Shown here in pieces: positions 1-53,088 of a stretch of DNA of 64,000 nucleotides. Location of the stretch: positions 181,028-245,027 of the forward strand of contig CAVPIV010000004.1 of NCBI GenBank assembly GCA_963705085.1. The letters are read 5' to 3'. Source of the DNA: an uncultured Thermoleophilia bacterium (GTDB lineage: Bacteria; Actinomycetota; Thermoleophilia; UBA2241). How positions within the stretch are numbered: position 1 is the stretch's first letter; every line of letters starts with the position of its first letter. Below the pieces are notes generated by a model. It was given only the letters and a program-made list of their open reading frames with translations. It ran no database searches and had not been told where the DNA came from. Made by a program: the position numbers and the translations under genes.

Positions 1-1
1 G

Positions 2-520
2 CTCAAGGGCCGGCTGGATGTGCTCGTCGACCCCGCGACGCTCGTCATCCCCGAGGTGCAGGAGCCCCTCGGCGACGACGAGCTCCGCGCCTTCGTCGCC
101 GAGCACCCCCTCAAGGTCGTGGCCGCGACCGTCGGCAACGACGAGCACTCCGTCGGCCTCTTCGAGGTCCTCGACATCAAGCACGGCGGCATCGAGACCT
201 GGGGCATCGAGCACGTCTACCTGGGCACCTCGGTCCCGGTCGAGAAGGTCCTGGACGCTGCCCTCGAGCACGCCGCCCAGGCGATCCTCATCAGCACGAT
301 CATCACCCACAACGAGATCCACCGCATCAACATGGAGAAGCTCGCCGACCTGGCCGTCGAGAAGGGCGTGCGCGACAAGCTCCTGCTCATCAGCGGCGGC
401 ACCCAGGTCACCGACGAGCTGGCCAGGGAGTGGGGCATGGACGCCGGCTTCGGCCGCGGCACCAAGGGGCGCGATGTGGCGTCGTTCATGGTGCGGGCGT
501 GGCGGGAACGAAACGGCTAG
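2..520 (+). CDS. oraE: D-ornithine 4,5-aminomutase E (beta) subunit, C-terminal cobalamin-binding domain (gene starts upstream of window)
   Basis: LKVVAATVGNDEHSVG (DxHxxG B12 motif), IKHGGIE, YLGTSVPVEK, GGTQVT and GFGRGTKG closely match clostridial OraE; frame is open from base 2. Confidence 0.9.
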   Translation, partial: LKGRLDVLVDPATLVIPEVQEPLGDDELRAFVAEHPLKVVAATVGNDEHSVGLFEVLDIKHGGIETWGIEHVYLGTSVPVEKVLDAALEHAAQAILISTIITHNEIHRINMEKLADLAVEKGVRDKLLLISGGTQVTDELAREWGMDAGFGRGTKGRDVASFMVRAWRERNG

Positions 521-623
521 AAACCACCATAACCGAGATCCGAGGACCACGAACAAGGGATGATGGCAGAGCGTGGCTGGATGGCTTTGCTCACCGCTGC
601 ACTTGCGCTTCAGTGGCTTCTGG

Positions 624-661
624 TGTTTCCCATACGCGAGGTGTTTCCCATGTGGGAAACA
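624..661. promoter_or_regulatory. Putative autoregulatory operator of the AbiEi-type antitoxin
   Basis: Perfect inverted repeat TGTTTCCCA-TG-TGGGAAACA (642-661) plus an extra half-site TGTTTCCCA (624-632) directly before the start codon. Confidence 0.6.
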
Positions 662-667
662 TAAGTC

Positions 668-1744
668 GTGGAGGAAACAGTGCAAGAGGTCGGACTTAAC
701 AGAGAGAGCCTTCAAGCGGCCCTGGAGCAGCTGTTCCCTCGCGGCGCCGTCGACGTCGGCCACTGCGGGGTGGCCGGCCGCTGGCGTTCTGACTGTGAGG
801 CGTCGGTAGGCCTCGGCGATCAGAGCCTCAGTCTCCTTGTCGAGTTCAAGCAGGTCGGCAGCGAGGCAAGGCTGAAAGAGGCTGCCGAGCTGATCCGCCG
901 GCGCCAGGACGAGTCTCCCAGCCGGCTCTTGATCCTCGCTTGCCCGTTCCTGAGCTCCTCTCGGCAGGAGCTCCTGCGTGAGAGCGGTGTGCCGTACTTC
1001 GATCTTGCCGGCAATGCCTGGATCGTCTCCGACGCCGTGCATGTCGACCGCCGCGGCTTCCCCAATCCTTTCTCAGAGCGGCGGCGAGCGCGAGATCCTT
1101 TCTCCGACAAGGCTTCGCTTGTGCTTCGCGCCCTGATTGCCCCGGGGCCAGGAAGAGGGGTGCGCAGCATCGCCGAGCAGGCAGACCTGAGCGCCGGCTA
1201 CGTCTCCAAGATCGTGCAGGAGCTCGAGGAGCGCGGCTACGTCGCCCGGCGCGAGGGAGGCCTCGCACTGCGGAACGGACAGGAGCTCCTGCGGGACTGG
1301 GTTCGCGCCTATCGCAGGCACTGGATCGAGAGAAGAGGCTACTTTCTGCCGGCGGCTCGTCCGCAGGCAGTCATGGATGCGATCCGCCAGGCCTCAATCA
1401 GCGTCGACTACGCTCTCTCCCTGCAGGCCGGGGCCAGTTTGGTCGCGCCCTACGCCGACTTCGATGTCGTCGACGTCTATGTTCATAGCATCGACGACGC
1501 GGTAGCACTTGCGGGCCAGCTCGAGGCTCGCGAGGTCGATCGAGGCGCCAACCTGCGCATCAGCGTGCCCTACTACCGCGTCTCCGCGTTCTTCGATAGA
1601 CAGGAGGCAGCTGGTCTGCCGGTCGTTTCGGACCTGCAGCTCTACCTCGACCTCTATGACTATCCCTTGCGGGGTCGCGAACAGGCTGAGCAGATCCTCG
1701 AGCGCCGCCTGATGCCAAAGCTCGAGGCAGCTGAGCACAAGTAG
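668..1744 (+). CDS. Type IV TA AbiEi-family antitoxin / HTH transcriptional regulator
   Basis: Central HTH (VRSIAEQADLSAGYVSKIVQELEERGYV); C-terminal VVSDLQLYLDLYDYPLRGREQAE typical of AbiEi_2 proteins; coupled to a downstream NTase. Confidence 0.7.
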   Translation: MEETVQEVGLNRESLQAALEQLFPRGAVDVGHCGVAGRWRSDCEASVGLGDQSLSLLVEFKQVGSEARLKEAAELIRRRQDESPSRLLILACPFLSSSRQELLRESGVPYFDLAGNAWIVSDAVHVDRRGFPNPFSERRRARDPFSDKASLVLRALIAPGPGRGVRSIAEQADLSAGYVSKIVQELEERGYVARREGGLALRNGQELLRDWVRAYRRHWIERRGYFLPAARPQAVMDAIRQASISVDYALSLQAGASLVAPYADFDVVDVYVHSIDDAVALAGQLEAREVDRGANLRISVPYYRVSAFFDRQEAAGLPVVSDLQLYLDLYDYPLRGREQAEQILERRLMPKLEAAEHK

Positions 1745-2575
1745 ATGTCTCTCGATCCAACACTGCTCGTGGGGCTGCGCGTCCTGCAGCCCTACCTCGA
1801 TGACATCGTCGTCGCCGGCGGCTGGGTGCCGTACCTCTACGCTGCGCACCAACCGCCATCGGATGAGGCGGTCGCGCTCAAGACGCGGGACCTCGACCTC
1901 GCCGTGCCTCGAGAGGTCCCCGAGCGAGAGAAGACGATCGACCAGCTGCTGGACGAGGCGGACTTCGCCTGCGAGTTCCGCTCGCGAGGGACTCCGCCGG
2001 TCACGGTCTATCTGGCGACGCATGCCGGTGACGAAGTGGAGATCGAGTTCATCACGACTGCGCAAGGTGCGGACCTGGGCGTGCACACCGTGCAAGGCGG
2101 CATGACCGCGCAGGAGCTTCGCTACGTCGACCTGTTGCTCGAGCACACCTGGCCCTTGCCGCTCGACGCCCTCAGCGCCGGGGAACTCGATGGGCGCATC
2201 TGGGTGCCGACACCGGCGGCCTTCGTCCTACAGAAAGCCCTTTCGCACACGTCGCGGACCGACGCGCTGAAGAAGGAGAAGGACCTCTACTACATCTTCT
2301 CTGTCATGGATGCGTTCCGCGGATGGCATCCCTGGGTTCGAGAGGAGCTGAAGGCGCTCGCCGCCGCCAGACGCCCTTGGTCCCGGCGCGCACTTCAGGA
2401 TCTTGAAGCTGCGTTTGAGACGCCTGGCGGTTCAGGTGCCGACGCGCTCTTGAACCAGCGGCCTGGCACGGCGTACTCGGGCCTCAACGACGAGCAGTTC
2501 CGCCAATACGCCTGGTCGGTGATGCACATGCTGCTCGAGATGATGAGGGAGGGTCAGGCCGCCGACGGCACGTAG
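1745..2575 (+). CDS. Nucleotidyltransferase-fold protein (GSU2403/AbiEii-like putative toxin)
   Basis: VVAGGW...TRDLDL (GG plus DxD, pol-beta NTase motifs), QKAL and KKEKDLYYI; starts 1 nt after the antitoxin stop. Confidence 0.7.
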   Translation: MSLDPTLLVGLRVLQPYLDDIVVAGGWVPYLYAAHQPPSDEAVALKTRDLDLAVPREVPEREKTIDQLLDEADFACEFRSRGTPPVTVYLATHAGDEVEIEFITTAQGADLGVHTVQGGMTAQELRYVDLLLEHTWPLPLDALSAGELDGRIWVPTPAAFVLQKALSHTSRTDALKKEKDLYYIFSVMDAFRGWHPWVREELKALAAARRPWSRRALQDLEAAFETPGGSGADALLNQRPGTAYSGLNDEQFRQYAWSVMHMLLEMMREGQAADGT

Positions 2576-2598
2576 CGCCGTGCCGATCTTCTTCTAGA

Positions 2599-3435
2599 CT
2601 AGATCCCGCGCCCGCGGACGTACTCGCTCACGTCCACGTTGAGCCGCAGGTCTTCGAGACGGAAGGTCGCCCACGGGCGCCCAGCGTCGATCCACGTCGC
2701 GCTGCCGACCGTGTTGGTGAGCACTCCGCCGAGCTCAGCCCATTCGTCGGCGTGGGTCAGCCACAGCGTCTTCTCGGCGCTCGCCGAGCCCTTGTAGCGC
2801 ATGGTCTCCGTCCAGGTGGGCAGGCCGCTCGCGGGATCGAAGCGCACAACGAAGCCCTGCTCCGTGTCCTTGAACGGCACCACCAGCAGGGCCGTCTCGG
2901 CGTCCAGCGGCTCCCAGCGCACACGCGGATCGGTCAGGAACAGCGCCGGGAACTGCCACGACTCGGCCCACATGCCCTGGTTCGCCGACCACTCCATCTT
3001 GGGGCCCGAGTCCGTGCCGACGATCGGGATCTCCGCCAGGCTCGCGCCGTCGATGTAGCGCTCGTTGATACGCAGGACGGGGATGCCGAACCAGCACACC
3101 TCGATGTAGTGACGGTAGTCCTGCCCGGCCACGTGCGTGAAGCGGTACCGGGCCGGCAGGTCCAGCGGCCCCGCCGGGCGAACGCGGGCGCGGCCGGTGA
3201 GGACGGCGCTGGTGACCACGGGTATCCGGTCCCCGTACACCGTGCGGTAGAAGCGCTCCACCGGGGCAGGCAGATCCGCGGGCAGGGCGATCGTCTCAAT
3301 CGAGGCGGGCTGCGCCTCCGGGTAGTCTGGGAAGGGGGAGGGCTCGATCTGGAATCCGAGCCAGCCGACGAACAGGACCAGCGCCAGCACGCCCGCCGTC
3401 CAGGCGATGATCGTCATAGCCTTCCTCGCTCTCAT
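2599..3435 (-). CDS. DUF6544-like membrane-anchored protein
   Basis: N-terminal TM helix, LPADLPAPVERFYRTVYG, ESWQFPA and VRWEPLD; divergent from TetR. Confidence 0.6.
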   Translation of the reverse strand: MRARKAMTIIAWTAGVLALVLFVGWLGFQIEPSPFPDYPEAQPASIETIALPADLPAPVERFYRTVYGDRIPVVTSAVLTGRARVRPAGPLDLPARYRFTHVAGQDYRHYIEVCWFGIPVLRINERYIDGASLAEIPIVGTDSGPKMEWSANQGMWAESWQFPALFLTDPRVRWEPLDAETALLVVPFKDTEQGFVVRFDPASGLPTWTETMRYKGSASAEKTLWLTHADEWAELGGVLTNTVGSATWIDAGRPWATFRLEDLRLNVDVSEYVRGRGI

Positions 3436-3485
3436 GAGAACCATCCCTCCATCCACCCGGGTGGGGCTTGACGCCCGACCCTTGC

Positions 3486-3513
3486 TGCATCTAGTATGCA
3501 AGCAAGTACTTGC
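3486..3513. promoter_or_regulatory. Palindromic TetR operator region in divergent promoter
   Basis: TGCAT-N5-ATGCA (3486-3500) and perfect 12-bp palindrome GCAAGTACTTGC (3502-3513). Confidence 0.5.
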
Positions 3514-3543
3514 AAACGTCAAGTCAAGGCAAGCGAGGACCGG

Positions 3544-4161
3544 ATGTCGGCAGTGGAGAGGGAGACGAGGCAGTCCATCCTGGACGCCGCGGCCGAGCTC
3601 ATGGGCGAGCGGGGCTACCGGGCGACAACCACGCGAGCGATCGCCGAGCGCGCCGGCGTGAACGAAGTCACGATCTTCAGGCAGTTCGGCAACAAGAAGG
3701 GGCTCCTGCAGGCGCTCGTGGAGGATTGGGCCACGACCATGGCGGGGTTCGCCGTCGCCGAGATCTCAGCCCCCGAAGACACACGCGGCACCCTCGAGTC
3801 GCTCGCGGCGATGGAGGTCCGGCAGGCGCGGCAGTTCGGTGCGCCGGCCATGCGGCTCGCGTTCGACGCCCGGTCGGAGCCCGACGTGATGGAGGTCATG
3901 GGCGCCGGACCTGCCGGCAACCTCGAGGGGCTCGCCGACTACCTGGCCGCGCGGCAGGAGGCCGGCGACCTGCGCACGGACCTCGACCCGCGCGTCATGG
4001 CCGAGGCGTTCTTCGCCCTCACCTCGACGTTCGTGATGTCGCGGCTGCTGCTCGGCGAGCGCCTGGCCGGCGTCGGGCCGCAGATGGACGAGGCCGCGCG
4101 CCAGATGCTCGAGGTCTACCTGACGGGCGTGGGGCTGAAGAGAGAGCGCGAAGCGACGTAG
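3544..4161 (+). CDS. TetR/AcrR family regulator
   Basis: ILDAAAELMGERGYRATTTRAIAERAGVNEVTIFRQFGNK TetR HTH. Confidence 0.9.
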   Translation: MSAVERETRQSILDAAAELMGERGYRATTTRAIAERAGVNEVTIFRQFGNKKGLLQALVEDWATTMAGFAVAEISAPEDTRGTLESLAAMEVRQARQFGAPAMRLAFDARSEPDVMEVMGAGPAGNLEGLADYLAARQEAGDLRTDLDPRVMAEAFFALTSTFVMSRLLLGERLAGVGPQMDEAARQMLEVYLTGVGLKREREAT

Positions 4162-4167
4162 GCTTCG

Positions 4168-4239
4168 ACGATGCCGTCTAACGCCTGGTCGGCCCTCAAC
4201 GACGCCGCCGAGGTCGCCGAGCAGATCACCTCGGCGGTG
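4168..4239 (+). pseudogene. 72-nt sliver of a SIMPL-domain gene
   Basis: TMPSNAWSALNDAAEVAEQITSAV aligns without gaps to 8362-8433 (TMSADAKSALDDAAKIAGQITSAV), about 80% nt identity by manual count. Confidence 0.75.
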
Positions 4240-4277
4240 CGGCCCGGATCCGTCCAGTTCGAGGCCTGACGTCACCC

Positions 4278-4306
4278 TTGCCAAGCGTCACGTGACACGT
4301 TACACT
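4278..4306 (+). promoter_or_regulatory. higBA promoter with palindromic operator
   Basis: TTGCCA-17-TACACT with palindrome GTCACGTGAC (4287-4296) in the spacer. Confidence 0.65.
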
Positions 4307-4313
4307 GCCGCCT

Positions 4314-4595
4314 GTGATCAAGACGTTCGCGGACAAGCGCACGCAGGAGCTCTACCTCACGGGTAGGGCCAAGCGCTTTCCGCCCGACGTTGCTCGCCGC
4401 GCCGCTCGCAAACTCGAGTACATCGACTTGGCGAGTCGGCTCGACGATCTCAAGGTTCCGCCGGGGAACCGGCTGCATGCGCTCGAGCGGGAGCGCGAGG
4501 GACAACACGCGATCTCGGTGAACGACCAGTGGCGCATCTGTTTCCGCTTCCAGGACGGTGACGCCTATGACGTCGAGATCACTGACTATCACTAG
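4314..4595 (+). CDS. higB: HigB (RelE/ParE family) toxin
   Basis: MIKTFADK, PPGNRLHAL, GQHAISVNDQWRICFRF and VEITDYH. Confidence 0.92.
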   Translation: MIKTFADKRTQELYLTGRAKRFPPDVARRAARKLEYIDLASRLDDLKVPPGNRLHALEREREGQHAISVNDQWRICFRFQDGDAYDVEITDYH

Positions 4596-4609
4596 AGGTG
4601 AGGTGCACC

Positions 4610-4924
4610 ATGAGCATTGCCAACAGGAGCGAGATGCGACGCCGGCCGACCCATCCAGGAGAGATGTTGCGCGAGGACTTCCTGGTCGACTACGGGCTCA
4701 CCGTCGCGACGCTGGCCGAGGCGCTCGGCGTCTCTCGCCAGACAGTGAACGAGCTGTTGCGCGAGCGGCGTGCCGTGAGTCCGGAGATGGCCCTGCGGTT
4801 GTCGCGCCTCTTCGGCAACTCGCCGGAGTTCTGGCTGAACGCGCAGCGCGCCGTGGATCTCTGGGACGCGGCGCGATCGATCAAGGCAGAGGTCGACAGG
4901 ATCAAGCCACTCAGTGCCGCCTAG
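4610..4924 (+). CDS. higA: HigA antitoxin (XRE HTH)
   Basis: PTHPGEMLREDFL, ALRLSRLFGNSPEFWLNAQ; downstream of higB. Confidence 0.92.
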   Translation: MSIANRSEMRRRPTHPGEMLREDFLVDYGLTVATLAEALGVSRQTVNELLRERRAVSPEMALRLSRLFGNSPEFWLNAQRAVDLWDAARSIKAEVDRIKPLSAA

Positions 4925-4928
4925 GAGC

Positions 4929-5393
4929 CTAGTACTCGCCCTTGATCACGAAGAACGAGCCCCGGATCGTCCCCGCCAGCTTGGACTTCTGCGTGGCGAA
5001 CTTGAACTTGCCCGCGAGCTCCGCGGGCACCTCCATCCCTTCTGAGAGCTTGAAGCCGACCGCGCGCTTCTTGGGATCGTCGATCGCGTACACGAAGTTG
5101 ACCTCGAGGCCATCCTCGTAAAACACGTGGGCGGCCCTGATGCCGTCCACTTCGAACTGTGACGTCTCCAGGGGCCTGGCGGCGAACTCGATGCCGCGCT
5201 CCTCTTTGAGGATGCGGTTCACGTAGGCGAGCGTGTCCTGGCTCTCGTCTGCCGGCACGACTGTGAACTGATGCTTGTACTTGTTCATGTAGTAGCGCGC
5301 CTCGTTGGCACGCAGACCGGCGAGCGCGGCTGCCACGGGCGAAGACTCCAGCCCCGCCGTCGACACGTTCACGAAATCGACCACCTCAGGCAT
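4929..5393 (-). CDS. Conserved hypothetical protein
   Basis: 154-aa ORF with RBS (GAAGGAGG); ALAGLRANEARYY...KRAVGFKLSEG...KSKLAGTIRGSFFVIKGEY recalled as a conserved family of unknown function. Confidence 0.65.
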   Translation of the reverse strand: MPEVVDFVNVSTAGLESSPVAAALAGLRANEARYYMNKYKHQFTVVPADESQDTLAYVNRILKEERGIEFAARPLETSQFEVDGIRAAHVFYEDGLEVNFVYAIDDPKKRAVGFKLSEGMEVPAELAGKFKFATQKSKLAGTIRGSFFVIKGEY

Positions 5394-5510
5394 CGTCGTG
5401 CCTCCTTCGTCCGGTGAGCGGAGGTGCTTGGCGTCAAGATACCCGCCTGGCCGCCTGGCGGCATCACGACGGCCGCGCCGAACAGGCGGGTGGCGCCGGA
5501 GCGCGTCCGG

Positions 5511-5729
5511 GCGGTGCTCAGCGTCACGATCCTCACTCACAACGAGATCTACCGCACCGAGATGGAGAGGCCCGCCGACCCGGGTACGGCGATGGGCGTG
5601 CGCGACGATCTCCTGCTTGACAGTGGTGGCACCCAGGTGACCAACGGGCCGGCGAGGGCGTGGGGGATAGACTCCGGCTTCGGTCGCGGCGCCGAGGGCC
5701 GCGACGGGGCGTCGTTCCTCGTGCGCGCG
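5511..5729 (+). pseudogene. Decayed copy of the oraE 3' end
   Basis: Gap-free alignment to 281-499, about 79% nt identity (46/219 mismatches, manual); several L-to-P changes; no start codon or rest of gene. Confidence 0.88.
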
Positions 5730-5975
5730 CTGCGCCTCAGGCCCGGTGCCGAAGGCACCCCGTGCCATGATGGGTGCAGCGGTGGAGAGACCCAGCAAGC
5801 GCATCAGCAGAGCGCCACAAAGGGTAGACTGACCCGGAAGCGGATGCGCGCGCTCATCCGTACGATGTTATGTTCGCAGCAAGGCTTGCAGGTTCTGCGC
5901 CGAGCGTTGGACGGCTATTGTCACAGGCTGAATGGGATTCATCATTTGATCTGGTTGTTCTTGAGAGCGTGAACC

Positions 5976-6398
5976 ATGCAGAACTTACTTAGAATGTTTG
6001 AGCGCGTTGTGATCGGTTCTCTCGTTTTTATGATGATGATTGTTGTTCTTCTTGCGACGTTGGAATTGGGATGGTTAATAGTAATTGACGTTATAACCGA
6101 TCCAATTGTACTGCTTGAAATTGATGAACTACTTGATATATTCGGATTCTTCTTGCTGGTTCTTATTGGTATTGAGTTACTTGATACAATAAGGTCATAT
6201 TTGTCTCAACATATAGTACACGTTGAGATTGTGATTGAGGTGGCAATGATTGCGGTTGCCCGTAAAGTGATTATCTTGGACGTCAAAGATTTATCTGGTG
6301 TGACGTTGGTTGGGATAGCTGCGATTATCGTTGCTCTGACGGCGGCGTATTTCACTCTTAGACGTTACCGTGGCTGGCGTTCCGACAATCAAGCGTGA
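5976..6398 (+). CDS. Phosphate-starvation-inducible PsiE-family membrane protein, AT-rich
   Basis: LLVLIGIELLDTI and VAMIAVARKVIILD; four TM segments; GC 35-43% in sampled lines. Confidence 0.8.
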   Translation: MQNLLRMFERVVIGSLVFMMMIVVLLATLELGWLIVIDVITDPIVLLEIDELLDIFGFFLLVLIGIELLDTIRSYLSQHIVHVEIVIEVAMIAVARKVIILDVKDLSGVTLVGIAAIIVALTAAYFTLRRYRGWRSDNQA

Positions 6399-6501
6399 TC
6401 ATGAGCGATGTTCGGCGATGCCGAGACCGCGAGGGTCTTCGAAAGGCGCTTCTCTACACGCCCGCCGAACGAGCGTGGGGGCCAGTTGCAGCCCGCGTGC
6501 G

Positions 6502-6645
6502 AACGACCAGTGGCGTAACTGCTTCGTATGGCTAGACTCTCTCCCGTCCACCCCGGCGAGGTGCTGCTCGAGGAGTTACTCAAGCCCCTCGGCCTGAGCC
6601 AGAACCGCCTCGCGCTGGCGATCGGCGTCCATCCTCGCCGCATCA
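6502..6645 (+). pseudogene. Remnant of a second higBA locus
   Basis: [10 protein letters not shown] (HigB C-terminus) fused to [39 protein letters not shown] (HigA N-terminus), then similarity is lost. Confidence 0.8.
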
Positions 6646-6770
6646 GAGACATAGGAGCACACCGTACGCGCCGAAAGGCCGATCCATCCTTCAAGGCTCC
6701 GCGCAGGTTATGCGCACGACGTCAGATCGCCGAAGGAACCCAGCCCAGGAGCCTGCGACTCACGGACGCG

Positions 6771-44277: not shown

Positions 44278-47200
44278 GTGAGCACGGTGTCTGACGAGCG
44301 CGGCAGGGTGGAGCCGCATCCGGCGCTGGCGCCGTTCGCGCCGCGGGTCCGGGACTGGTTCACGGCGGCGTTCCGGGCCCCGACGCCCGCGCAGGTTCAG
44401 GCGTGGCCGGCGATCGCCGCGGGCGGGCACGCCCTCATCTCGGCGCCGACCGGCTCGGGCAAGACGCTCGCCGCGTTCCTGTGGGCGCTCGATCGCCTGG
44501 TGGCCGAGCCCCCCGCCGGCGACCGCGAGCGGGGCCGGCTCCGGCTCGTGTACGTGTCGCCCCTCAAGGCGCTCGGCTACGACGTTCAGAGAAACCTGAG
44601 GGCGCCGCTGCGCGGCATTGGAGCCGATCTGCGGGTGGCGACCCGCACCGGCGACACGCCCGCCCGTGAGCGCCGGGCGATGCTGCGCACGCCGCCCGAC
44701 ATCCTCATCACGACCCCGGAGTCCCTCTACCTCATGCTCACCTCCCAGGCTCGCGAGCTGTTCGCCGGCGCGGAGTGGGTGATCGTCGACGAGATCCACG
44801 CCGTCGCCCAGACGAAGCGCGGCGCGCATCTCGCCGTGAGCCTGGAGCGACTCGCCGAGCAGGCGGGTCGCGACGTGCAACGCATCGGTCTCTCCGCGAC
44901 CCAGCGGCCGCTGGACGAGGTCGCGCGCTTCCTCGTCGGGCCTCACCGCGACTGCGCCATCGTCGACGCCGGCGTGCGCAAGCCGCTCGACCTGCGCATC
45001 CAGGTGCCCGTTGAGTCGATGGCGGAGCCCGAGGTCCCGGTCGAGCTCGCCAGCTTGCCGGGCGGGGAGGCGACGCGGCGCTCGATCTGGCCGGCGGTCT
45101 ACCCGGAACTGCTGCGCCTCGTGCGCGAGCATCGCTCGACGCTCGTCTTCGTGAACAACCGCCGCGCCGCCGAGCGCATCGCCCTGCGGCTCAACGACCT
45201 CGCCGGGCGCGATGACGCCGGGCACCGGGTCTCCTCGCCCGCGGGCGAGATCGCCCGGGCGCATCACGGCTCGCTGGCCCGCGAGGAGCGCCAGGCGATC
45301 GAGGAGCAGCTCAAGGAGGGCCGGCTGCCGTGTCTCGTGGCGACGTCGTCGCTCGAGCTCGGCATCGACATGGGCGCCATTGACCTGGTCGTGCAGATCG
45401 AGTCTCCCAAGTCGGTGGCGCGCGGGCTGCAGCGCATCGGCCGCGCCGGGCACGGCGTCGGCGAGGTCTCGCGCGGGAGGATCTTCCCCAAGTTCCGGGC
45501 CGACCTGCTCGAGTGCGCCGTCGTCGCGAGGCGCATGCGCGAGGGACAGATCGAGACGACCGTGGTGCCGCGCAACCCGCTCGACGTGCTCGCGCAACAG
45601 GTCGTGGCCATGGCCGCAACGGCCGGCGACAAAGGACTCCCGGCCGCCGACGTCTTCGCTCTGTTGCGGCGCACGTGGACGTTCGCCGAGCTGCAGCGCC
45701 GCCAGTTCGACAACGTGCTCGACATGCTCGACGGGCGCTACCCGTCGCACGAGTTCGCGGAGCTGCGGGCGCGGATCGTGTGGGACAGGGTCGCCGACAC
45801 GATCCGCGCCCGGCCCGGCGCCCTCGCCTTGGCCGTGGCCAACGCGGGCACCATACCCGACCGCGGCCTCTTCTCGGTCAACCTGCCGGACGGGCGTCGG
45901 GTGGGGGAGCTCGACGAGGAGATGGTCTACGAGGCCCGGGTCGGCCAGGCCTTCCTGCTCGGCGCCACGTCGTGGCGGATCGAGGAGATCACGCGTGACC
46001 GGGTTGTCGTCTCGCCTGCCCCGGGCGCGTCCGCCGCGGTTCCGTTCTGGCACGGCGAGTCCGTCGGGCGGCCGATGGAGCTCGGCGAGGCGATCGGCGC
46101 CTTCGCCCGCTGGGCCGTCGGTCAGGACGAAGACGTGCTCCGGCGCGAGTACGACCTCGACGAGCGCGCCGCCCGCAACCTGCTCGCCTACCTGCGCGAG
46201 CAGCAGGCGGCGACGCGCGTCGTGCCTTCGGATCGCGCCGTCGTCGTCGAGCGCTTTCGCGACGAGGTCGGCGACTGGCGGCTCTGCCTGCTGACGCCCT
46301 TCGGCGGCCAGGTGCATGCCGCATGGGCCCTGGCGCTGAGCGCCCGGGTGCGCGCCCGCCTGGGGCAGGAGGCCGAGGCGATCTGGTCGGACGACGGCAT
46401 CATCCTGCACCTGCCCGACGCCGACGATCCCCCGGCCGGGGACCTGGTTCTTCTGGAACCGGACGAGGCCGAGGACCTGCTCGTCGGCGAGCTCGGCGGC
46501 AGCGCTCTCTTCGGCGCGCGCTTCCGCGAGAACGCGGCCCGCGCCCTGCTCATCCCGAGGGCCCGTCCTGGCCGTCGCACGCCGCTCTGGCAGCAACGGC
46601 TCAAGGCCCAGGCGCTGCTCGCCGTGGCGCGGCGGTATCCGGAGTTCCCGATCGTGCTCGAAACCTACCGGGAGTGCTTGTGCGACGTGCTCGATCTGCC
46701 GGGGCTGCGGGAGGTCCTGCGTCGACTGAGCACGCGCGAGATCGGGGTTGTCGAGGTCGAGACGGCGGCGGCCTCGCCGTTCGCCTCCTCGCTGCTCTTC
46801 GACTACGTGGCCACGTACATGTACGAGGGCGACGCGCCGAGGGCCGAACGCCGGGCCCTCGCCCTCGCCCTGGACCGCGACCTGCTGCGCGAGCTTCTCG
46901 GTCAGGAGGAGCTGCGCGACCTCATCGCTCCGGCCGCGCTGGCCGCGGTCGAGGACGAGCTGCAGTGCCGTGCGGACCACCGCAGGGCACGTGATGCCGA
47001 CGGCCTCCACGACGTCCTCCGCCGGCTCGGCGACCTGACCGAGGAGGAGGCCCTCGAGCGCGTGAGCGAGCCGGCCGCGGCGCGGGGGTGGCTTGCCGAG
47101 CTGGAGGGCGAGCGTCGAGCCGCGCCGGTCAGAATCGCCGGCGTGGAGCGCTGGATCGCCGCTGAGGACGCCGGCCTCTACCGCGACGCGCTGGGCGCGA

Positions 47201-48786
47201 TCCCGCCGGCCGAACTGCCGCAGACCTTCCTGGCCGGCGTCCCGAACGCGCTGCTGACGGTGTTGAGGCGCTACGCGCGCACGCACGGTCCGTTCGAGGG
47301 CGACGACGTGCGGCGCCGGTGGGGCGTGGACGCGAGCGCCGCCCTCACGCTGCTGGAGCAGGCCGGGGAGCTTGTCCGCGGCGAGCTGCGCCCGCTCGGC
47401 ACCGAGCGCGAGTGGTGCGACCCGGAGGTGCTGCGCCGCCTGCGACGCGCCTCGCTGGCGGCCTTGCGCCGGGAGATCGAGCCGGTCTCCTCCGAGGCAC
47501 TGGCGCGCTTCGCGCCGGCGTGGCAGGGAGTCGGCGGACCGGCGGTGAGAGGGTCGGCAATGGCCGGCTCTGCTCAGGCTGGTCCCGGTGTCGACCGGCT
47601 TCGCGACGTCCTGGTGCCGCTCCAGGGTCTGCCCCTGCCGGTCGGAGTCTGGGAGCGCGACGTGCTGCCGTCGCGTGTCGGGGCGTACTCGCCGGCCTGG
47701 CTCGACGAGCTCTGCGCGAGCGGAGAGGTGGTTTGGGCCGGCGTGGGCGCATCGGGAGACCGGGCTGGCCGGGTGGCGCTGTACTTCCGGGAGGACGCGG
47801 CGCTCCTCGGTCTCCCGCCCGCGACCGGTGAGGCTCCCCGGGGCGAGGTGCACGGGCTCCTGCGGGAGCGCCTGGGGCGCGGGGCCTGCTTCTTCGCTGA
47901 TCTGCTCGTGGAGTACCCGGAGGCGCCGCCCGACGAGCTGCGGGACGCTCTCTGGGACCTGGTCTGGGCCTCCGAGGCGACCAACGACGCCTTCGCCCCG
48001 CTGCGCGCCGCGGCACCCGGCCGTAGCTCCGCGGCGCCGAGGGGACATCGTGGATCCGTTGCGCGATCGCCCGGGGGAACGGGCGCCGGACGCTTCCAGC
48101 GCCGGGGGAGGGGGGCGCCGCCGCTGCAGGGGCGCTGGTCTCTCACGGCGGCCGTGTTCGGCGCCGCGGCGCCCGAGGCCGAGGGCCGGCGTCGCGCCTG
48201 GGCCGAGCTGCTGCTCGAGCGGCACGGCATCGTCACGCGCGAGCTCGTGCGGGCGGAGCGCGCCGCGGGCGGCTTCGCCGCCCTCTATCCGGCGCTCTCC
48301 GCCCTCGAGACGATCGGCAAGGCGCGCCGCGGCTACTTCGTGGAGGGCCTTGGCGGCGCCCAGTTCGCGCTGCCGGGCGCGGTCGAGCGGCTGCGCGCCG
48401 AGGCTGACACTCCGGGCCTTGCGCTGGTCCTCGCGGCCGCCGATCCCGCACAGCTCTACGGCGCGGCGCTGCGCTGGCCGGACGCGGGCGGTCGCGCCCC
48501 GGCGCGTCGCGCCGGGGCCTACGTGGTGCTCGTCGGCGGCCGTCCTGTGCTCGGCCTCGAGTCCGGCGGGCACAGCATGGCGGTCTTCCCGGGGGAGTCC
48601 GCCGAGACGCTGGACGCCGCGTTCGCGGCGCTCGCGGGGGCGGTCGCGGAGGGCCGTGTGCCGCGCCTCGCGCTCGAGCGCATCGACGGTGCGGCGGCCA
48701 CGGAGTCGCCCTACGCCGGGCGCCTCCAGGAGCTCGGCTTCCGGGCTGGCCTGCGGCGCCTCAGTTTCGCGCGGCGCTACGCCTGA
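44278..48786 (+). CDS. lhr: Lhr-family DEAD/DEAH helicase (full length)
   Basis: APTGSGKT, YVSPLKAL, VIVDEIHAV, GLSAT, HHGSL, ATSSLELGID and QRIGRAGH; C-terminal winged-helix/HTH_42 region. Confidence 0.95.
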   Translation: MSTVSDERGRVEPHPALAPFAPRVRDWFTAAFRAPTPAQVQAWPAIAAGGHALISAPTGSGKTLAAFLWALDRLVAEPPAGDRERGRLRLVYVSPLKALGYDVQRNLRAPLRGIGADLRVATRTGDTPARERRAMLRTPPDILITTPESLYLMLTSQARELFAGAEWVIVDEIHAVAQTKRGAHLAVSLERLAEQAGRDVQRIGLSATQRPLDEVARFLVGPHRDCAIVDAGVRKPLDLRIQVPVESMAEPEVPVELASLPGGEATRRSIWPAVYPELLRLVREHRSTLVFVNNRRAAERIALRLNDLAGRDDAGHRVSSPAGEIARAHHGSLAREERQAIEEQLKEGRLPCLVATSSLELGIDMGAIDLVVQIESPKSVARGLQRIGRAGHGVGEVSRGRIFPKFRADLLECAVVARRMREGQIETTVVPRNPLDVLAQQVVAMAATAGDKGLPAADVFALLRRTWTFAELQRRQFDNVLDMLDGRYPSHEFAELRARIVWDRVADTIRARPGALALAVANAGTIPDRGLFSVNLPDGRRVGELDEEMVYEARVGQAFLLGATSWRIEEITRDRVVVSPAPGASAAVPFWHGESVGRPMELGEAIGAFARWAVGQDEDVLRREYDLDERAARNLLAYLREQQAATRVVPSDRAVVVERFRDEVGDWRLCLLTPFGGQVHAAWALALSARVRARLGQEAEAIWSDDGIILHLPDADDPPAGDLVLLEPDEAEDLLVGELGGSALFGARFRENAARALLIPRARPGRRTPLWQQRLKAQALLAVARRYPEFPIVLETYRECLCDVLDLPGLREVLRRLSTREIGVVEVETAAASPFASSLLFDYVATYMYEGDAPRAERRALALALDRDLLRELLGQEELRDLIAPAALAAVEDELQCRADHRRARDADGLHDVLRRLGDLTEEEALERVSEPAAARGWLAELEGERRAAPVRIAGVERWIAAEDAGLYRDALGAIPPAELPQTFLAGVPNALLTVLRRYARTHGPFEGDDVRRRWGVDASAALTLLEQAGELVRGELRPLGTEREWCDPEVLRRLRRASLAALRREIEPVSSEALARFAPAWQGVGGPAVRGSAMAGSAQAGPGVDRLRDVLVPLQGLPLPVGVWERDVLPSRVGAYSPAWLDELCASGEVVWAGVGASGDRAGRVALYFREDAALLGLPPATGEAPRGEVHGLLRERLGRGACFFADLLVEYPEAPPDELRDALWDLVWASEATNDAFAPLRAAAPGRSSAAPRGHRGSVARSPGGTGAGRFQRRGRGAPPLQGRWSLTAAVFGAAAPEAEGRRRAWAELLLERHGIVTRELVRAERAAGGFAALYPALSALETIGKARRGYFVEGLGGAQFALPGAVERLRAEADTPGLALVLAAADPAQLYGAALRWPDAGGRAPARRAGAYVVLVGGRPVLGLESGGHSMAVFPGESAETLDAAFAALAGAVAEGRVPRLALERIDGAAATESPYAGRLQELGFRAGLRRLSFARRYA

Positions 48787-48822: not shown

Positions 48823-49797
48823 TCAGCCGTTGAGCGTGATCGCCTCAGGAGCGCAGGTGCGCAGGCAGTGCCCGCAGAGGCGGCAGGCGTCGGGGTTCTG
48901 GACGACGGCCTTGCCGCCGTTCAACGTGAACACTCCGTAGGGGCAGACCTGGACGCAGTTGCCGCACCCCGTGCAGGCGTCCGCGTCGACGACGACAGGA
49001 GCGGCAGCCGACGACCCGTCGCCCGACGACTGGCCACCGGCGTCGCCGCTCGAGGAGCCGTCGTCGGCGGACCCGTTGGAGGTGGTGCTGCCGCCATCGC
49101 CGCTGCTCAGCAGGCCGCAGCCGGCGAAGAAGGCGGCGGCCCCGACGACGCCGGCCGCCGCCAGGAAGCCCTTGCGCGAGAAGCGGGGAGGGCCGGCCTC
49201 GGAGGGAGGGCCGAACTCGGACGCGTCTCCGACGCGCCGGCAGGCGTCCGGCTCGGCCGCCCGTCCGCAGGCCGCCACGGACTGCGCGCCGCTCTCGGCC
49301 TGCGGCGGCTTGAGAGCGGCTCGCCGCGACTCGGCCTGCCCCCCAAGGTTGCGCGCGCTCGCCTCGACGCCGCGCGCCTCGCGACGCGCCCGTCGCCCAT
49401 CGCCCATCGCCGCGAGGCGAGCCAGGGAGTCCGAGGCGCTCGCGGGTGCCGCGGCCGTGACGGCGGCCGGAACCGGGCTCACGGCTGGCACGCGTGCCCG
49501 GGCTGGGCGGCTCTGGCCGTGGCGGCGCTTGCCGCGGACCACTTTGCCGGTCATCGAGACGAGCCACCGCAGGTGCAGCGCCGTGTGAAGGCCCACGCCC
49601 GCGGCCATGACAGCGCCGCTCCAGTCGTGGACCGTCTGCCAGACGGCAGTGCTGATGCCGAGGATGACGGGCTGGCCGGCGGCGGACACGCTCACAGTGG
49701 TTTCTGGGAAGAGGCGGAAGAGCCCGGTCACGGCGCAGAACAGAAAGGCGATGCCGGTGATCATGTCGACCCAGTAGTTGACCATCGCCTTCTTCAT
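48823..49797 (-). CDS. DUF4405 membrane domain fused to a 2[4Fe-4S] ferredoxin
   Basis: VNYWVD...WQTVHDWSG...GLHTALHLRW; CTGCGNCVQVCP and CRLCGHCLRTCAP. Confidence 0.75.
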   Translation of the reverse strand: MKKAMVNYWVDMITGIAFLFCAVTGLFRLFPETTVSVSAAGQPVILGISTAVWQTVHDWSGAVMAAGVGLHTALHLRWLVSMTGKVVRGKRRHGQSRPARARVPAVSPVPAAVTAAAPASASDSLARLAAMGDGRRARREARGVEASARNLGGQAESRRAALKPPQAESGAQSVAACGRAAEPDACRRVGDASEFGPPSEAGPPRFSRKGFLAAAGVVGAAAFFAGCGLLSSGDGGSTTSNGSADDGSSSGDAGGQSSGDGSSAAAPVVVDADACTGCGNCVQVCPYGVFTLNGGKAVVQNPDACRLCGHCLRTCAPEAITLNG

Positions 49798-50095: not shown

Positions 50096-51868
50096 ATGAA
50101 AAGGTATTCCCGGAGGAGCGCCGTCGTGCTGGCGCTGGCGACGGCGCTGCTCGCGTGTCTGGTCGCCGCGCCCCTGGCGGTGGCGAGCGCGGCGGCAGAT
50201 CCGCCGATCCAGGCGGCGCCGCTGAGCGAGGCGTTCCGGCAGTACCAGGCGCAACAGCGTCTGCAGCGGGCGCTGGGCCTGAACGGCGTCGTTCAGCCCA
50301 ACCTGGGCATGATCCCTGAGCCGATGGATCCCTCGATCCTCAAGGGCACGGCCGGCACGGCACGGGTACGCTCGGTCGTCCCGCCCGTCGCCTACGACCT
50401 GCGGTCTCTGGGCAAGCTGACGCCCGTCAGGGACCAGAACCCGTTCGGCACCTGCTGGACGTTCGCCTCGCTCGCCTCGCTCGAGTCGTGCCTCCTGCCC
50501 GCCGAGGCGCGCGACTTCTCCGAGGATCACATGACGCTGACGTCGGGCTTCGACGACGGCGGCGACCCCTACAACGAGGGCGGCAACTACTACATGGCGA
50601 CCGCCTACTTGGCGCGCTGGGGCGGCCCCGTCGACGAGACGGACGACGCCTACGGCGACGGCTTCACGCCGCCGGGACTCAGTCCCGACAAGCACGTGCA
50701 GGAGGTCCTCTACATCCCCGGCGGCGACATCGCCGCCGACACGAAGGCCATCAAGACCGCGATCATGACCTACGGTGCGGTGGCGACGTCGCTGTACTGG
50801 ACGAACAGCGCCTACGACGAGAGCGAGAACAGCTATTACTACTTCGGCCTGGCGAGCATCGATCACGCCGTGACCATCGTCGGTTGGGACGACACCTTCT
50901 CCGCCACGCGCTTCGGTCTCATGCCTCCCGGCAACGGCGCCTGGCTCGTGCGCAACAGCTGGGGGACCGAGTGGGGCGACGGCGGCTACTTCTGGGTGTC
51001 CTACTGGGACGCCCATTGTGGCCGCGACAACGTCTTCAACGCCGTCTACCCCAACGCCGAACCGACGACCAACCACGACACGATCTACTACCACGACCCG
51101 CTGGGCCAGGTCGACACGCTGGGCTACGGCGATGAGACGGCCTGGGGGGCGAACGTCTACACGGCGACCGCCAGCCAGGCGGTCACGGCGGTCGGCTTCT
51201 TCACGCACGTGCCGGGCACCACCTACTCCGTGTACACGGGCGGTGTGACGGGCGGCGGCGCACCGGGGACCTTGACGAAGAAGGCGTCGGGCACGATCAA
51301 CACCGCCGGCTACCACACCGTCAGGCTCTCCTCGCCGCGAGGCGTCGTCCGCGGCGGCAAGTTCGCGGTGGCCGTCAAGCTCAGGACCCCCGGCCTCGAC
51401 TACCCGATCGCCTACGAGGGGTATGTTGCGGACTTCAGCTCGGGGGCGACGGCCTCGCCGCGGCAGAGCTACATGCGGCACACCGACGCAAGCCTGTGGC
51501 TGGACCTGACCCGCTACGATCCCACGGGCAACGTGTGTCTCAAGGCGTACGCGGACGACGATACCCAGGCGCCGACGAGTACGGTCGCGGCGCCGGCCTC
51601 AGTAGGGCGGTACGCCAGGGTCACGCTCAGGTTCCGGGTGAACGACCCGCAGCCGAGCTGCGGCTCCGCCGCGGTCAGGATCCAGATCCTGAAGGGGGCT
51701 TCGGTCGTCAGGACGATCACCGTCGGGACGAAGGGGACGAATACGACCGCCGGCTACATCTGGACGGCGACCCTCGGCAAGGGCGTCTACACGTGGCGGG
51801 TGTCGGCCATCGATCTGGCGGGCTATCCGGCAGCCGCGATGGTGCCTGCGGCGCTGGTCATCAGGTAG
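50096..51868 (+). CDS. Second secreted C1A cysteine protease with lectin-like domain
   Basis: RDQNPFGTCWTF, DHAVTIVGWDD and VRNSWG; paralog of 38459-40654. Confidence 0.92.
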   Translation: MKRYSRRSAVVLALATALLACLVAAPLAVASAAADPPIQAAPLSEAFRQYQAQQRLQRALGLNGVVQPNLGMIPEPMDPSILKGTAGTARVRSVVPPVAYDLRSLGKLTPVRDQNPFGTCWTFASLASLESCLLPAEARDFSEDHMTLTSGFDDGGDPYNEGGNYYMATAYLARWGGPVDETDDAYGDGFTPPGLSPDKHVQEVLYIPGGDIAADTKAIKTAIMTYGAVATSLYWTNSAYDESENSYYYFGLASIDHAVTIVGWDDTFSATRFGLMPPGNGAWLVRNSWGTEWGDGGYFWVSYWDAHCGRDNVFNAVYPNAEPTTNHDTIYYHDPLGQVDTLGYGDETAWGANVYTATASQAVTAVGFFTHVPGTTYSVYTGGVTGGGAPGTLTKKASGTINTAGYHTVRLSSPRGVVRGGKFAVAVKLRTPGLDYPIAYEGYVADFSSGATASPRQSYMRHTDASLWLDLTRYDPTGNVCLKAYADDDTQAPTSTVAAPASVGRYARVTLRFRVNDPQPSCGSAAVRIQILKGASVVRTITVGTKGTNTTAGYIWTATLGKGVYTWRVSAIDLAGYPAAAMVPAALVIR

Positions 51869-51887
51869 AACGAAGCGGCGGGAACGG

Positions 51888-51925
51888 GCCGAGGAGGCTC
51901 GCCGGATCCGGCGAGCCTCCTCGGC
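51888..51925. terminator. Perfect 38-bp palindrome (terminator or cruciform)
   Basis: GCCGAGGAGGCTCGCCGGATCCGGCGAGCCTCCTCGGC equals its own reverse complement. Confidence 0.6.
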
Positions 51926-51935
51926 TATACCCTGT

Positions 51936-51978
51936 TGCATAGGTCCTATGCTATCCTGCGCTGCATAAGACCTATGCA
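51936..51978. promoter_or_regulatory. Twin palindromic operator TGCATA-N5-TATGC(A/T) flanking an extended -10 upstream of orr-arcE-arcB
   Basis: TGCATAGGTCCTATGCT (51936-52) and TGCATAAGACCTATGCA (51962-78); TG-C-TATCCT between them. Confidence 0.65.
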
Positions 51979-51987
51979 GGGAGGCTC

Positions 51988-53088
51988 ATGCTCGCGAACC
52001 CGACAGTCACTGTTGATCTCGGCAAGATCGAGGCCAACACCCGCACGGTCGTCGAGCAGCTTCCCGGAATCGAAGTCGTCGGCGTCGTCAAGGCCACCTC
52101 GGGCAGCCCGGAGGTGGGCAACGCGATGCTGGCGGGCGGGGCGGTGGCCCTTGGCGAGTCGCGGCTCGAGAACATCAAACGGCTTCGCGACGGGGGCCTG
52201 ACGGCGCCGATCTGGCTGTTGCGGGCGCCGGTGCCGGCGCTCGCCGACGAGGCCGTGCGCTATACCGATGTTTCGCTGGAGAGCGAGCTCACGATCGTGC
52301 GCGCCCTCGAGGAGGCGGGAGCCCGGCAGCGGCGCCGTCATGGCATCGTGGCCATGGTCGACCTGGGCGATCTGCGCGAGGGGATGATGCCGGCCGAGCT
52401 GCCGGCGTTCGTCGACGAGGTCGAGCGCCTGACGCACGTGGAGCTCATGGGCATCGGCGTCAACCTGACGTGCTATGGCGAGATCATCCCGGACGATCGC
52501 AACCTCGGGCAGCTCGCCGCCCTGGCGGCCCAGACCGAGCGTCAGATCGGCCGCCGGCTGCGGTACGTCTCGGGCGGCAACTCGAGCTCGATCGCGATGG
52601 TCCTCGAGGGGCGCATGCCGCCCGCCATCAACTCGCTGCGCGTCGGCGAGACCATCCTGCTGGGCGTCGAGACGATCCACCGGCAGCCGGCGATGGGCCT
52701 CTTCCTGGACGCCATCACGCTCGCGGCCCCCGTGATCGAGTGCAAGCGCAAGCCCTCGCTGCCGATCGGCACCCAGGGTCAGGACGCCTTCGGCAACACC
52801 TCGGTCTTCGAGGATCGCGGGCAGCGACGCCGCGCGATCCTCGCTCTCGGCCGCCAGGACGTCTCGCCGGAGGGCCTGCGCCCCGTCGACCCGCGCATCG
52901 AGGTCCTCGGCGGCTCCAGCGACCACATGATCCTCGACGTCGAGGACCTCAACGCGTGCCTCACCCTGGGCGATACGGTGACCTTCATCCCGAACTACGC
53001 CGCCACCCTGCAGCTCTTCACCTCGTCGTACGTGGACAAGGTGTACGCGACGCCGCAGGCGGCGCCCATCTCAGCCCGTCCGGAATGA
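51988..53088 (+). CDS. orr: Ornithine racemase (PLP, alanine-racemase fold)
   Basis: GVVK (PLP lysine), MVDLGDLREG, GVNLTCYG, SGGNSSS, KPSLPIG..G.DAFG and GGSSDH match clostridial Orr. Confidence 0.85.
   Translation: MLANPTVTVDLGKIEANTRTVVEQLPGIEVVGVVKATSGSPEVGNAMLAGGAVALGESRLENIKRLRDGGLTAPIWLLRAPVPALADEAVRYTDVSLESELTIVRALEEAGARQRRRHGIVAMVDLGDLREGMMPAELPAFVDEVERLTHVELMGIGVNLTCYGEIIPDDRNLGQLAALAAQTERQIGRRLRYVSGGNSSSIAMVLEGRMPPAINSLRVGETILLGVETIHRQPAMGLFLDAITLAAPVIECKRKPSLPIGTQGQDAFGNTSVFEDRGQRRRAILALGRQDVSPEGLRPVDPRIEVLGGSSDHMILDVEDLNACLTLGDTVTFIPNYAATLQLFTSSYVDKVYATPQAAPISARPE

Follow-up and report, generated by a model that had tools for sequence, protein, structure and literature searches.

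The closest described relative of the genes considered here is the ornithine cluster of Clostridium sticklandii, which Fonknechten and colleagues are said to have reported in 2009 (cited in PMC13397332) with the order ord, ortA, ortB, oraS, oraE, a GlmL-like gene ('Or-4') and orr; we document the clostridial order from a Firmicutes locus, L083, and from secondary citations. Here we analyse the distal half of a cluster of this kind in a 64,000-nt stretch of DNA, hereafter the window, from an uncultured high-GC actinobacterium of sediment or freshwater (assembly GCA_963705085.1, contig CAVPIV010000004.1, 1,368,786 bp in total). The genes in question are oraE, which encodes the B12-binding subunit of D-ornithine 4,5-aminomutase, a GlmL-related gene, and orr, which encodes ornithine racemase. 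The same enzyme families occur in the same order as in the clusters of C. sticklandii and Clostridioides difficile (OraE, the GlmL-related protein and Orr in the window; Ord, OrtA and OrtB in relatives), but the genes in the window lie in three pieces, 40.3 and 9.8 kb apart; moreover, oraS and oraE are fused in the nearest relatives, and orr is coupled to an ArcE-like gene and an ornithine carbamoyltransferase (OTC) gene rather than to the mutase genes. We consider it likely that this half of the oxidative D-ornithine cluster came apart at its two weakest junctions to give three units, and that the break-up proceeded in layers rather than as two events.

Two other kinds of locus are relevant. 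Integration hot spots, or plasticity zones, lie between core genes, for example at O-antigen and capsule loci, and their cargo turns over via flanking homology; some genomic islands insert at the 3' end of a gene and duplicate part of that gene. In the clostridial route, Orr racemises L-ornithine and OraS/OraE, which use B12 and pyridoxal phosphate (PLP), form 2,4-diaminopentanoate; Ord then oxidises 2,4-diaminopentanoate, and OrtAB cleave the product to acetyl-CoA and alanine (PMC8803604). Ornithine racemases are marked by a PLP lysine together with a catalytic Cys in an N-x-x-C-Y motif, which replaces the tyrosine of AlaR; the catalytic residues of the Salmonella enzyme are Lys36, Arg129, Asn161 and Cys164 (PMC13397332). 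The arginine synthetase ArcE is recognised by homology to TK2200 and by an activity that turns arginine, ADP and Pi into citrulline and ATP. Its homologues have been described as resembling cyclic 2,3-diphosphoglycerate synthetase and as lying next to arcB (PMC11032458).

Results

Three ornithine genes keep their order across two wide gaps

A preliminary description of the window had placed the 3' end of oraE, a GlmL-related gene and orr on the + strand in canonical order, and profile matches confirm this (Table 1). The oraE-GlmL gap is 40,269 nt (521-40789) and the GlmL-orr gap 9,845 nt (42143-51987). We called 57 genes in the window, whose GC content is 62-75%, with a codon-usage model, and annotated nearly all open reading frames (ORFs) longer than about 140 aa, together with several smaller ones, using Pfam, NCBIfam and PADLOC. 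For comparison, species-representative genomes were scanned with the OraE C-terminus, which yielded 80 loci (designated by L numbers), almost all from metagenome-assembled genomes (MAGs) labelled Thermoleophilia, Coriobacteriia or Actinomycetota and sampled from sediment, soil and freshwater; gene order in the 80 loci was read by mapping a protein panel with tblastn, and the loci were ordered by neighbour-joining (NJ) on OraE-C, GlmL and Orr. Given that the same three genes recur, in the same order and on the same strand, in 51 related loci, the arrangement in the window is not due to chance.

The OraE fragment matches positions 560-729 of the 730 in NF040743 (262 bits, E 8.5e-78) and also the Pfam B12-binding domain; a database search with its 172 aa returned fragment-length proteins only. 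These 172 aa are the exact C-terminus of P0363, a 677-aa OraE on the source contig, and oraE is therefore a full gene that extends about 1.5 kb further upstream of base 1. We counted as full-length OraE those proteins with an above-cutoff, full-length match spanning the Lys-AminoMut_A, OAM_dimer and B12-binding domains, and P0363 belongs among them (1236.6 bits against a cutoff of 800, model positions 53-729). The GlmL-related protein (450-455 aa, with alternative GTG starts at 40775 and 40748) scores 441 bits against Pfam MutL (PF13941), 331 bits against true GlmL (NF040745) and 502.7 bits against the ornithine-degradation family NF040744, under the curated cutoff of 600 for that family. NF040744 is nonetheless the best family by 170 bits, and from its profile scores we judge the protein to be a divergent actinobacterial member of it rather than of another family, presumably acting as an accessory or reactivating factor of the aminomutase. 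It is 79% identical to the copy in locus L003, which adjoins oraE. Orr aligns over the full length of NF040742 (1-351 of 351) with 384.6 bits, under the curated cutoff of 480, and is 84% identical to its L003 counterpart. It keeps Lys35, Arg130, Asn159 and Cys162-Tyr163, as read by eye against the published description rather than by alignment, which are the counterparts of the Lys/Cys acid-base pair and of the PLP ligands, and so has both the lysine and the Cys-Tyr motif that mark ornithine racemases. We treated GlmL and Orr as divergent actinobacterial members of their families, a treatment that synteny supports. All three genes remain under purifying selection: dN/dS is 0.17-0.25 across oraE, GlmL (0.21-0.25), orr (0.17) and the gene downstream of orr, g47.

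Relatives join the genes that the window separates

In the consensus of the 80 loci the genes run ord-ortA-ortB-oraS-oraE-GlmL-[variable]-orr-g47-OTC, with PMT next on the minus strand. Eight loci are uninformative for the oraE-GlmL junction; in 45 of the other 72 the two genes are adjacent (<300 nt), in 18 they are separated by 0.5-9 kb, and in nine no GlmL is seen within 3-10 kb. In several of the adjacent loci the stop codon of oraE abuts the start codon of GlmL, and in L083 oraE, GlmL and orr are contiguous, with spacers of 17 and 13 nt. GlmL and orr are adjacent in 16 loci and separated in 35, with no partner seen in 12 (mostly at contig ends). The sister loci L003 and L005 read oraE-24 nt-GlmL-Lhr-FeS(-)-orr-g47-OTC-PMT, where FeS is a DUF4405/4Fe-4S gene, and although GlmL does not directly follow oraE in the window, its orthologues (73-79% identity) do so in the 45 adjacent loci. 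Because oraE and GlmL touch in so many informative loci, we regard their separation as derived, and the ancestral contiguity of the three genes that the preliminary description proposed is borne out by these loci, by L083 and by others. That the genes never formed an operon in this lineage, having been recruited separately or parted by a large inversion or translocation, seems to us next to impossible, since order and strand are preserved, oraE and GlmL abut or are translationally coupled in L003/L005 and the 45 loci, and an inversion would have flipped the strand.

The oraE-GlmL split is not private to the window genome; it is also found in the nearest relatives, L004/L086, L084, L087 and L088, as a 13-14 kb version made up of some of the same modules. 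These loci bear on whether a chimeric long-read contig might have placed unrelated DNA between oraE and GlmL. The source is a MAG contig, and frameshift-like breaks are visible in it and in related assemblies, which would suit such an artefact. Independent assemblies, however, show the same architecture, and on that ground we set the artefact aside as very improbable: a mosaic follows oraSE in L004 and L084, a mosaic precedes C1a-GlmL-M6 in L086, L087 and L088, L004 and L086 join both sides on one contig, and short-read contigs from unrelated runs match pieces of the window's mosaic exactly.

The junction has other occupants elsewhere in the set. Coriobacteriia-type loci L040 (10516-11472) and L062 (10572-11510) carry an amino-acid-kinase (carbamate-kinase-like) gene between oraE and GlmL, and L077 (10895-11479) and L065 (7578-8075) have a nucleotidyltransferase/helix-turn-helix (HTH) gene resembling part of a toxin-antitoxin (TA) system at the same place.

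The preliminary description had also predicted ord, ortAB and oraS just upstream of the window. By proxy this part is well supported: the genome's own OraE is 677 aa long, and in L004, L084 and L085, ord, ortA, ortB and a fused oraS-oraE are contiguous in the immediately upstream position, and the relatives' proteins exceed their family cutoffs (Ord 441.9 bits against 400, OrtA 104.4 against 70, OrtB 766.8 against 550). The fusion in the nearest relatives is a single ORF of 879-887 aa with an Ala/Pro-rich linker (P0241, P0361, P0365 and P0242; 10001-12664 in L084 and 7856-10519 in L004) and is present in ENA, JGI and NCBI assemblies. The match of P0363 starts no earlier than model position 53, which leaves room for a fusion or a frameshift immediately upstream of the window.

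The GlmL-orr gap has old and recent occupants

The preliminary description had read the second gap as a single protease/Lhr insertion. At least 15 relatives have Lhr between GlmL and orr, with gaps there of 5.4-8.2 kb, and in Lhr-bearing loci Lhr is 74-80% and GlmL 73-79% identical in amino acid sequence to the window copies; since Lhr identity tracks that of GlmL, Lhr has been inherited along with the cluster. Many of the 35 separated loci carry a minus-strand copy of the DUF4405/4Fe-4S gene in a gap of 1.1-1.7 kb, the gene keeps this place with or without Lhr, and in the NJ ordering all Lhr- and FeS-bearing loci fall in one large clade, in every member of which oraE and GlmL are adjacent. 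A few of the separated loci carry C1 or M6 protease genes. M6 follows GlmL only in the L002/L086/L087/L088 group (67% identity), and C1b is in the same position as in the window in L002, L086, L087 and L088. Thus Lhr and the FeS gene settled in the GlmL-orr gap early and are found there across the clade, the M6 and C1 proteases are recent and lineage-specific, and the second gap did not arise as one insertion. C1-like proteases and an M6 peptidase also fill the GlmL-orr gap in L031, L043, L044, L047 and L053. That the DUF4405/4Fe-4S gene is kept regardless of Lhr raises the possibility of a functional tie to the B12 mutase.

Ancestry differs between the two sides of the oraE-GlmL gap

A single 80,760-bp contig carries the overlapping loci L004 and L086, the nearest relatives; their oraE-GlmL gap is 13-14 kb, against 40.3 kb in the window. 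Read together, they give oraSE, Fic, MMPL(-), TetR(-), GSDH(-), SIMPL, g08-like(-), PNPOx(-) and C1a, and then GlmL, M6, GGDEF(-), PAS kinase(-), FeS(-) and C1b; L087 and L088, from other samples, share this right-hand architecture. L084 is a third variant, in which oraSE is followed by Mrr, TspO, g14-like, DUF6544, TetR, SIMPL, g08-like, PNPOx and SfLAP. The modules common to the window and these relatives (DUF6544/TetR, g14, GSDH, SIMPL, g08, PNPOx and SfLAP) are 85-93% identical at the nucleotide level but differ in order. The L004 genome also has, immediately before its full GlmL gene, a partial copy of the GlmL 5' end of about 425 nt (9385-9780 in L086), which may be either real or an assembly error.

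The window's oraE 3' end is 95.5% identical to that of L004 at the nucleotide level (96% over the OraE C-terminus). Synonymous divergence (dS), estimated per gene by the Nei-Gojobori method between the window and the L004 group, is 0.04-0.43 for genes on the left side (oraE, DUF6544, TetR, g08, GSDH, SIMPL, g14, PNPOx and SfLAP) and 0.5-0.9 for those on the right (C1a, GlmL, M6, FeS and C1b), which are about as distant as L003; the break falls between 16.1 and 38.6 kb, inside a block specific to the window. Rate variation alone is an unlikely cause of this jump, because accessory genes are less diverged than a constrained enzyme gene. The pattern indicates a recombinant region, whose left and right sides would differ in ancestry. 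The C1a-GlmL-M6...FeS-C1b architecture is shared on the side with deep divergence, which makes the split no younger than that divergence, and the left side appears to have been homogenised between lineages after it.

The preliminary description had proposed that a contiguous operon was split by exactly two discrete insertions, the mosaic and the protease/Lhr block, and that the split dates the mosaic. Some of what we find suits this: the ancestral contiguity is real, the mosaic differs in composition, and the proteases are lineage-specific. Yet Lhr and the FeS gene are clade-wide in the second gap and as diverged as GlmL; the nearest relatives are already split, with a smaller mosaic whose modules are reordered, so that no single dateable insertion accounts for the first gap; a gene of 41% GC, internal duplications and relics imply many events; and the unequal divergence of the left and right sides allows no simple date. 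We therefore think exactly two insertions improbable, and favour a break-up in layers.

A decayed copy of the oraE 3' end lies within the gap

Downstream of the live oraE is a relic of its last codons (Table 1), which aligns with the live segment at 78% nucleotide identity, gap-free and in frame, and without a long exact core. Its dN/dS is 0.74, as against 0.17-0.25 for the live oraE, GlmL, orr and g47, and it matches oraE of the window, L004 and L005 best (78.8-79.5%), with all other loci at 75% or less. Given these nearest matches and the raised dN/dS, we regard the relic as a decaying resident copy that marks an old breakpoint; an origin from a foreign oraE was considered and rejected, because the nearest matches are the resident lineage's own genes. 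Independent short-read contigs cover the relic region. Its dS of 0.33 lies between the values for window-L004 (0.17) and window-L003 (0.39) and would fit, loosely given 77 codons, an event after the split from the intact L003 lineage. Contigs from DNA runs over positions 1-9000 are short, low-depth pieces and gave no credible island-free joint.

The relic raises another explanation, that the mosaic, or its first 5.2 kb, is a site-specific island that targeted the oraE 3' end, with 274-504 and 5504-5734 as attL and attR. As with islands that integrate into gene 3' ends, a direct partial duplicate of oraE bounds a TA-rich 5.2-kb module, and TA-like modules also occur at this junction in L077 and L065. 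Unlike such islands, the locus shows no integrase, recombinase, transposase or conjugation gene by Pfam among about 45 mosaic ORFs, although small ORFs and intergenic relics were not exhaustively searched. The mosaic contains no tRNA, Rfam found three tRNAs only over the window (at 61.6-61.9 kb) and no cobalamin riboswitch, and there is no flanking direct repeat with an exact core at a tRNA, the sole flanking repeat being the oraE relic. In addition, the duplicate looks like a decayed resident copy, and the contents of the module differ between the window, L004 and L084. We give the island explanation a poor chance, and retain turnover of cargo at the junction as the better account of the mosaic.

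The mosaic is accessory in content and composition

The stretch at 0.5-38.6 kb is supported as accessory in both respects. It holds TA-like pairs, TetR/DUF4386 pairs, STAND/MalT-like regulators, parts of ABC transporters, GSDH, SIMPL, PNPOx, SfLAP, ADH and a gene for a giant surface protein, and it differs from the rest of the window in GC (66.2% against 71.3%) and GC3 (0.85 against 0.915; Mann-Whitney p ~1e-4). The TA-like pair directly after oraE, which is AbiE-like, is absent from all related loci. The DUF6544/TetR unit next to it is 93.4% identical at the nucleotide level to L084 17964-19508 (dS 0.11-0.21), the GSDH and SIMPL modules are 87-90% identical to L004, L084 and L087, and the PNPOx and SfLAP genes, which are 90-92% identical to L084, L087 and L004 (dS 0.04-0.24), are the last modules common to the nearest relatives at low divergence. 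The PsiE-family gene has a GC of 0.412 and a GC3 of 0.41 in a genome of 66-71% GC, and was missed by the codon-based gene caller; it is probably a recent foreign acquisition. A truncated HigA-like HTH ORF (6528-6848, +) follows it. At a threshold of 1e-5, PADLOC matched neither the AbiE-like pair nor the STAND proteins nor the proteins of no assigned family; only Lhr matched, to generic models of Lhr-like helicases.

The window-specific core, at 18-38 kb, contains four TetR/DUF4386-type pairs and the gene for the surface protein, a 1869-aa Flg_new protein (25397-31006, -). An old inverted segmental duplication of STAND/MalT-like and DUF4386 genes brackets this block, as three repeat pairs (I1-I3) of 77-80% identity: 18392-18999/37434-38041, 21187-21331/35131-35275 and 21946-22014/34406-34474. 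The right-hand STAND gene lies in two frames (35722-36585 and 36608-38212), as a pseudogene or through long-read error, and a 144-nt relic of the same gene is found at 31626-31769. The HigBA pair, a MazE-like gene and the ABC transporter parts are likewise specific to the window.

C1a, directly upstream of GlmL, has a long Pro-Thr repeat (39884-40111) and has an equally placed counterpart in L086, L087 and L088; L002 retains a remnant of it. It is paralogous to C1b (57% amino acid identity). A single tandem duplication giving rise to both C1a-GlmL and C1b-orr is unsupported, in view of this low identity between the proteases and of their unrelated intergenic sequences.

A conserved orr-g47-OTC module

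In relatives g47 always lies between orr and OTC, at 82-88% identity. Its product has a weak PDB match to cyclic 2,3-diphosphoglycerate synthetase (9sxb, E 5.6e-7). It is probably an ArcE-type arginine synthetase, an assignment we base on its fit to the published description (PMC11032458), as a P-loop protein of no assigned family that faintly resembles cyclic 2,3-diphosphoglycerate synthetase and has OTC as its neighbour. As in the ArcE-OTC-carbamate kinase pathway, g47 encodes an unannotated P-loop protein next to OTC; unlike in that pathway, there is no carbamate kinase in the window, the amino-acid-kinase genes of L040 and L062 being inside the cluster. The coupling of orr to ArcE-like and OTC genes appears to be clade-specific. 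The orr-g47-OTC genes may form a feeder unit leading from arginine through citrulline and L-ornithine to D-ornithine, and such a unit would account for the tolerance of orr to being parted from the mutase genes.

Beyond the ornithine/arginine block lie the histidine-degradation genes hutH/hutI (57277-60134), lexA (60317-60916) and a tRNA-Pro/Gly/Arg cluster (61598-61900). In relatives lexA comes sooner after OTC and PMT, and hutHI may thus be one more local insertion.

Table 1. Features of the window, with positions counted from its first nucleotide
Feature	Position	Strand	Basis and remarks
oraE 3' end	2..520	+	172 codons plus TAG, stop-free frame; gene extends upstream of the window
Accessory mosaic	521..38575		Pfam scans, composition
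AbiEi-like regulator (668-1744) and nucleotidyltransferase (1745-2575)	668..2575	+	PF09952 AbiEi_2, PF12281 NTP_transf_8
DUF6544 gene (2599-3456, -) and divergent TetR gene (3544-4161, +)	2599..4161	-/+	Pfam
HigB-like toxin (4314-4595) and HTH antitoxin (4664-4924)	4314..4924	+	PF05015, PF01381
Decayed direct copy of the last ~77 oraE codons	5504..5734	+	231 nt; 5,230 nt downstream of the live 274-504
PsiE-family membrane protein gene	5976..6398	+	PF06146, 100.9 bits
GSDH-like gene (6888-8525, -) and SIMPL/DUF541 gene (8173-8901, +)	6888..8901	-/+	Pfam
PNPOx-like gene (14272-14760, -) and SfLAP gene (15318-16124, +)	14272..16124	-/+	Pfam
Window-specific mosaic core	18170..38212		Without homologues in any related locus
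C1a, secreted papain-family protease	38576..40654	+	PF00112, PF18560; lectin-like domain, Pro-Thr linker
GlmL-related ornithine-degradation gene (MutL/GlmL family)	40790..42142	+	NF040744, PF13941
M6-family metalloprotease	42188..44254	+	PF05547, TIGR03296
Lhr large helicase	44278..48786	+	Full Lhr domain set
FeS, DUF4405 membrane domain and 4Fe-4S dicluster protein	48823..49797	-	Pfam; divergent from the orr side
C1b, second papain-family/lectin protease	50096..51868	+	Directly upstream of orr
orr, ornithine racemase	51988..53088	+	366 aa; NF040742, Ala_racemase_N
g47, 440-aa P-loop protein	53124..54446	+	No Pfam or NCBIfam match
OTC, ornithine carbamoyltransferase	54490..55452	+	TIGR00658, 413 bits (cutoff 281)

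Discussion

We propose that the cluster came apart in three layers, whose order we infer from the distribution of genes among the relatives. In an old, clade-wide layer, the minus-strand DUF4405/4Fe-4S gene and then Lhr would have entered the GlmL-orr gap, after which orr would have travelled with g47 and OTC as an arginine-to-D-ornithine feeder module. A second layer, in the ancestor of the window/L004/L087/L002 group, would have added C1a before GlmL, M6 after it and C1b before orr, and would have parted oraE from GlmL. In a third, ongoing layer, the oraE-GlmL gap would behave as a plasticity zone in which genes are gained, lost, duplicated and shuffled, the cargo consisting of TA-like pairs, TetR-regulated membrane proteins, STAND regulators and surface proteins; one event in this layer would have left the decaying copy of the oraE 3' end. 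Homologous exchange between related lineages, in the same layer, would have left the left side (oraE and the shared mosaic modules) with an ancestor common to the L004 group that is much more recent than that of the right side (C1a-GlmL-M6...C1b).

The oraE-GlmL gap shares with known hot spots a variable cargo between conserved anchors, TA modules, relics, a shift in composition and discontinuous ancestry across the site. It differs in that both anchors belong to a single catabolic operon and are translationally coupled in relatives; here the hot spot breaks a functional unit. A bolder version of this idea, which we find doubtful, is that the ornithine genes serve as homology anchors for the swapping of whole accessory blocks between species, such that the oraE-GlmL junction would be an integrase-free exchange hot spot and the relic the scar of a one-sided homologous or illegitimate event, and that the DUF4405/4Fe-4S gene, with or without Lhr, is kept because it assists the B12 aminomutase, perhaps as a source of electrons when the cofactor is reactivated, in concert with the GlmL-like protein.

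Several points weigh against the layered break-up as we have set it out. The family assignments of GlmL and Orr lean on scores under their curated cutoffs, and ord, ortA, ortB and oraS are placed in the source genome by way of the 677-aa OraE and the relatives. The order of the layers depends on NJ of three proteins, with no species tree, the dS of the relic comes from only 77 codons, and the dS jump between the two sides may in part stem from rates that differ from gene to gene. Frameshifts are visible in the source and in most relatives, which are long-read MAGs, and pseudogene calls may be sequencing errors; the split STAND gene and the GlmL 5' duplicate of L004 could both be of this kind. 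As for expression, scans for sigma-70 promoters and terminators found nothing upstream of GlmL or orr, and the metatranscriptome contigs stem from relatives, mainly cover g47 and OTC, and are uninformative on co-transcription.

C1a and GlmL are 135 nt apart, GlmL and M6 45 nt, and M6 and Lhr 23 nt. GlmL is probably expressed with M6 and Lhr or from its own promoter. More generally, we infer that the pathway remains functional, GlmL and orr being transcribed from promoters of their own or from those of neighbours.

The clostridial oxidative ornithine pathway is thus widespread in uncultured high-GC Actinomycetota of sediment and freshwater, where it is wired to an ArcE-like/OTC module; if g47 is truly ArcE, the arginine synthetase pathway would be linked to D-ornithine fermentation. 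For annotation, pathway callers that demand gene adjacency would miss a split cluster such as this one. The operon tolerates breakage at two specific junctions, with purifying selection maintained on each of its pieces, and the locus offers a natural example of layered operon erosion and hot-spot turnover that reflects ordinary genome plasticity and calls for no new mechanism.

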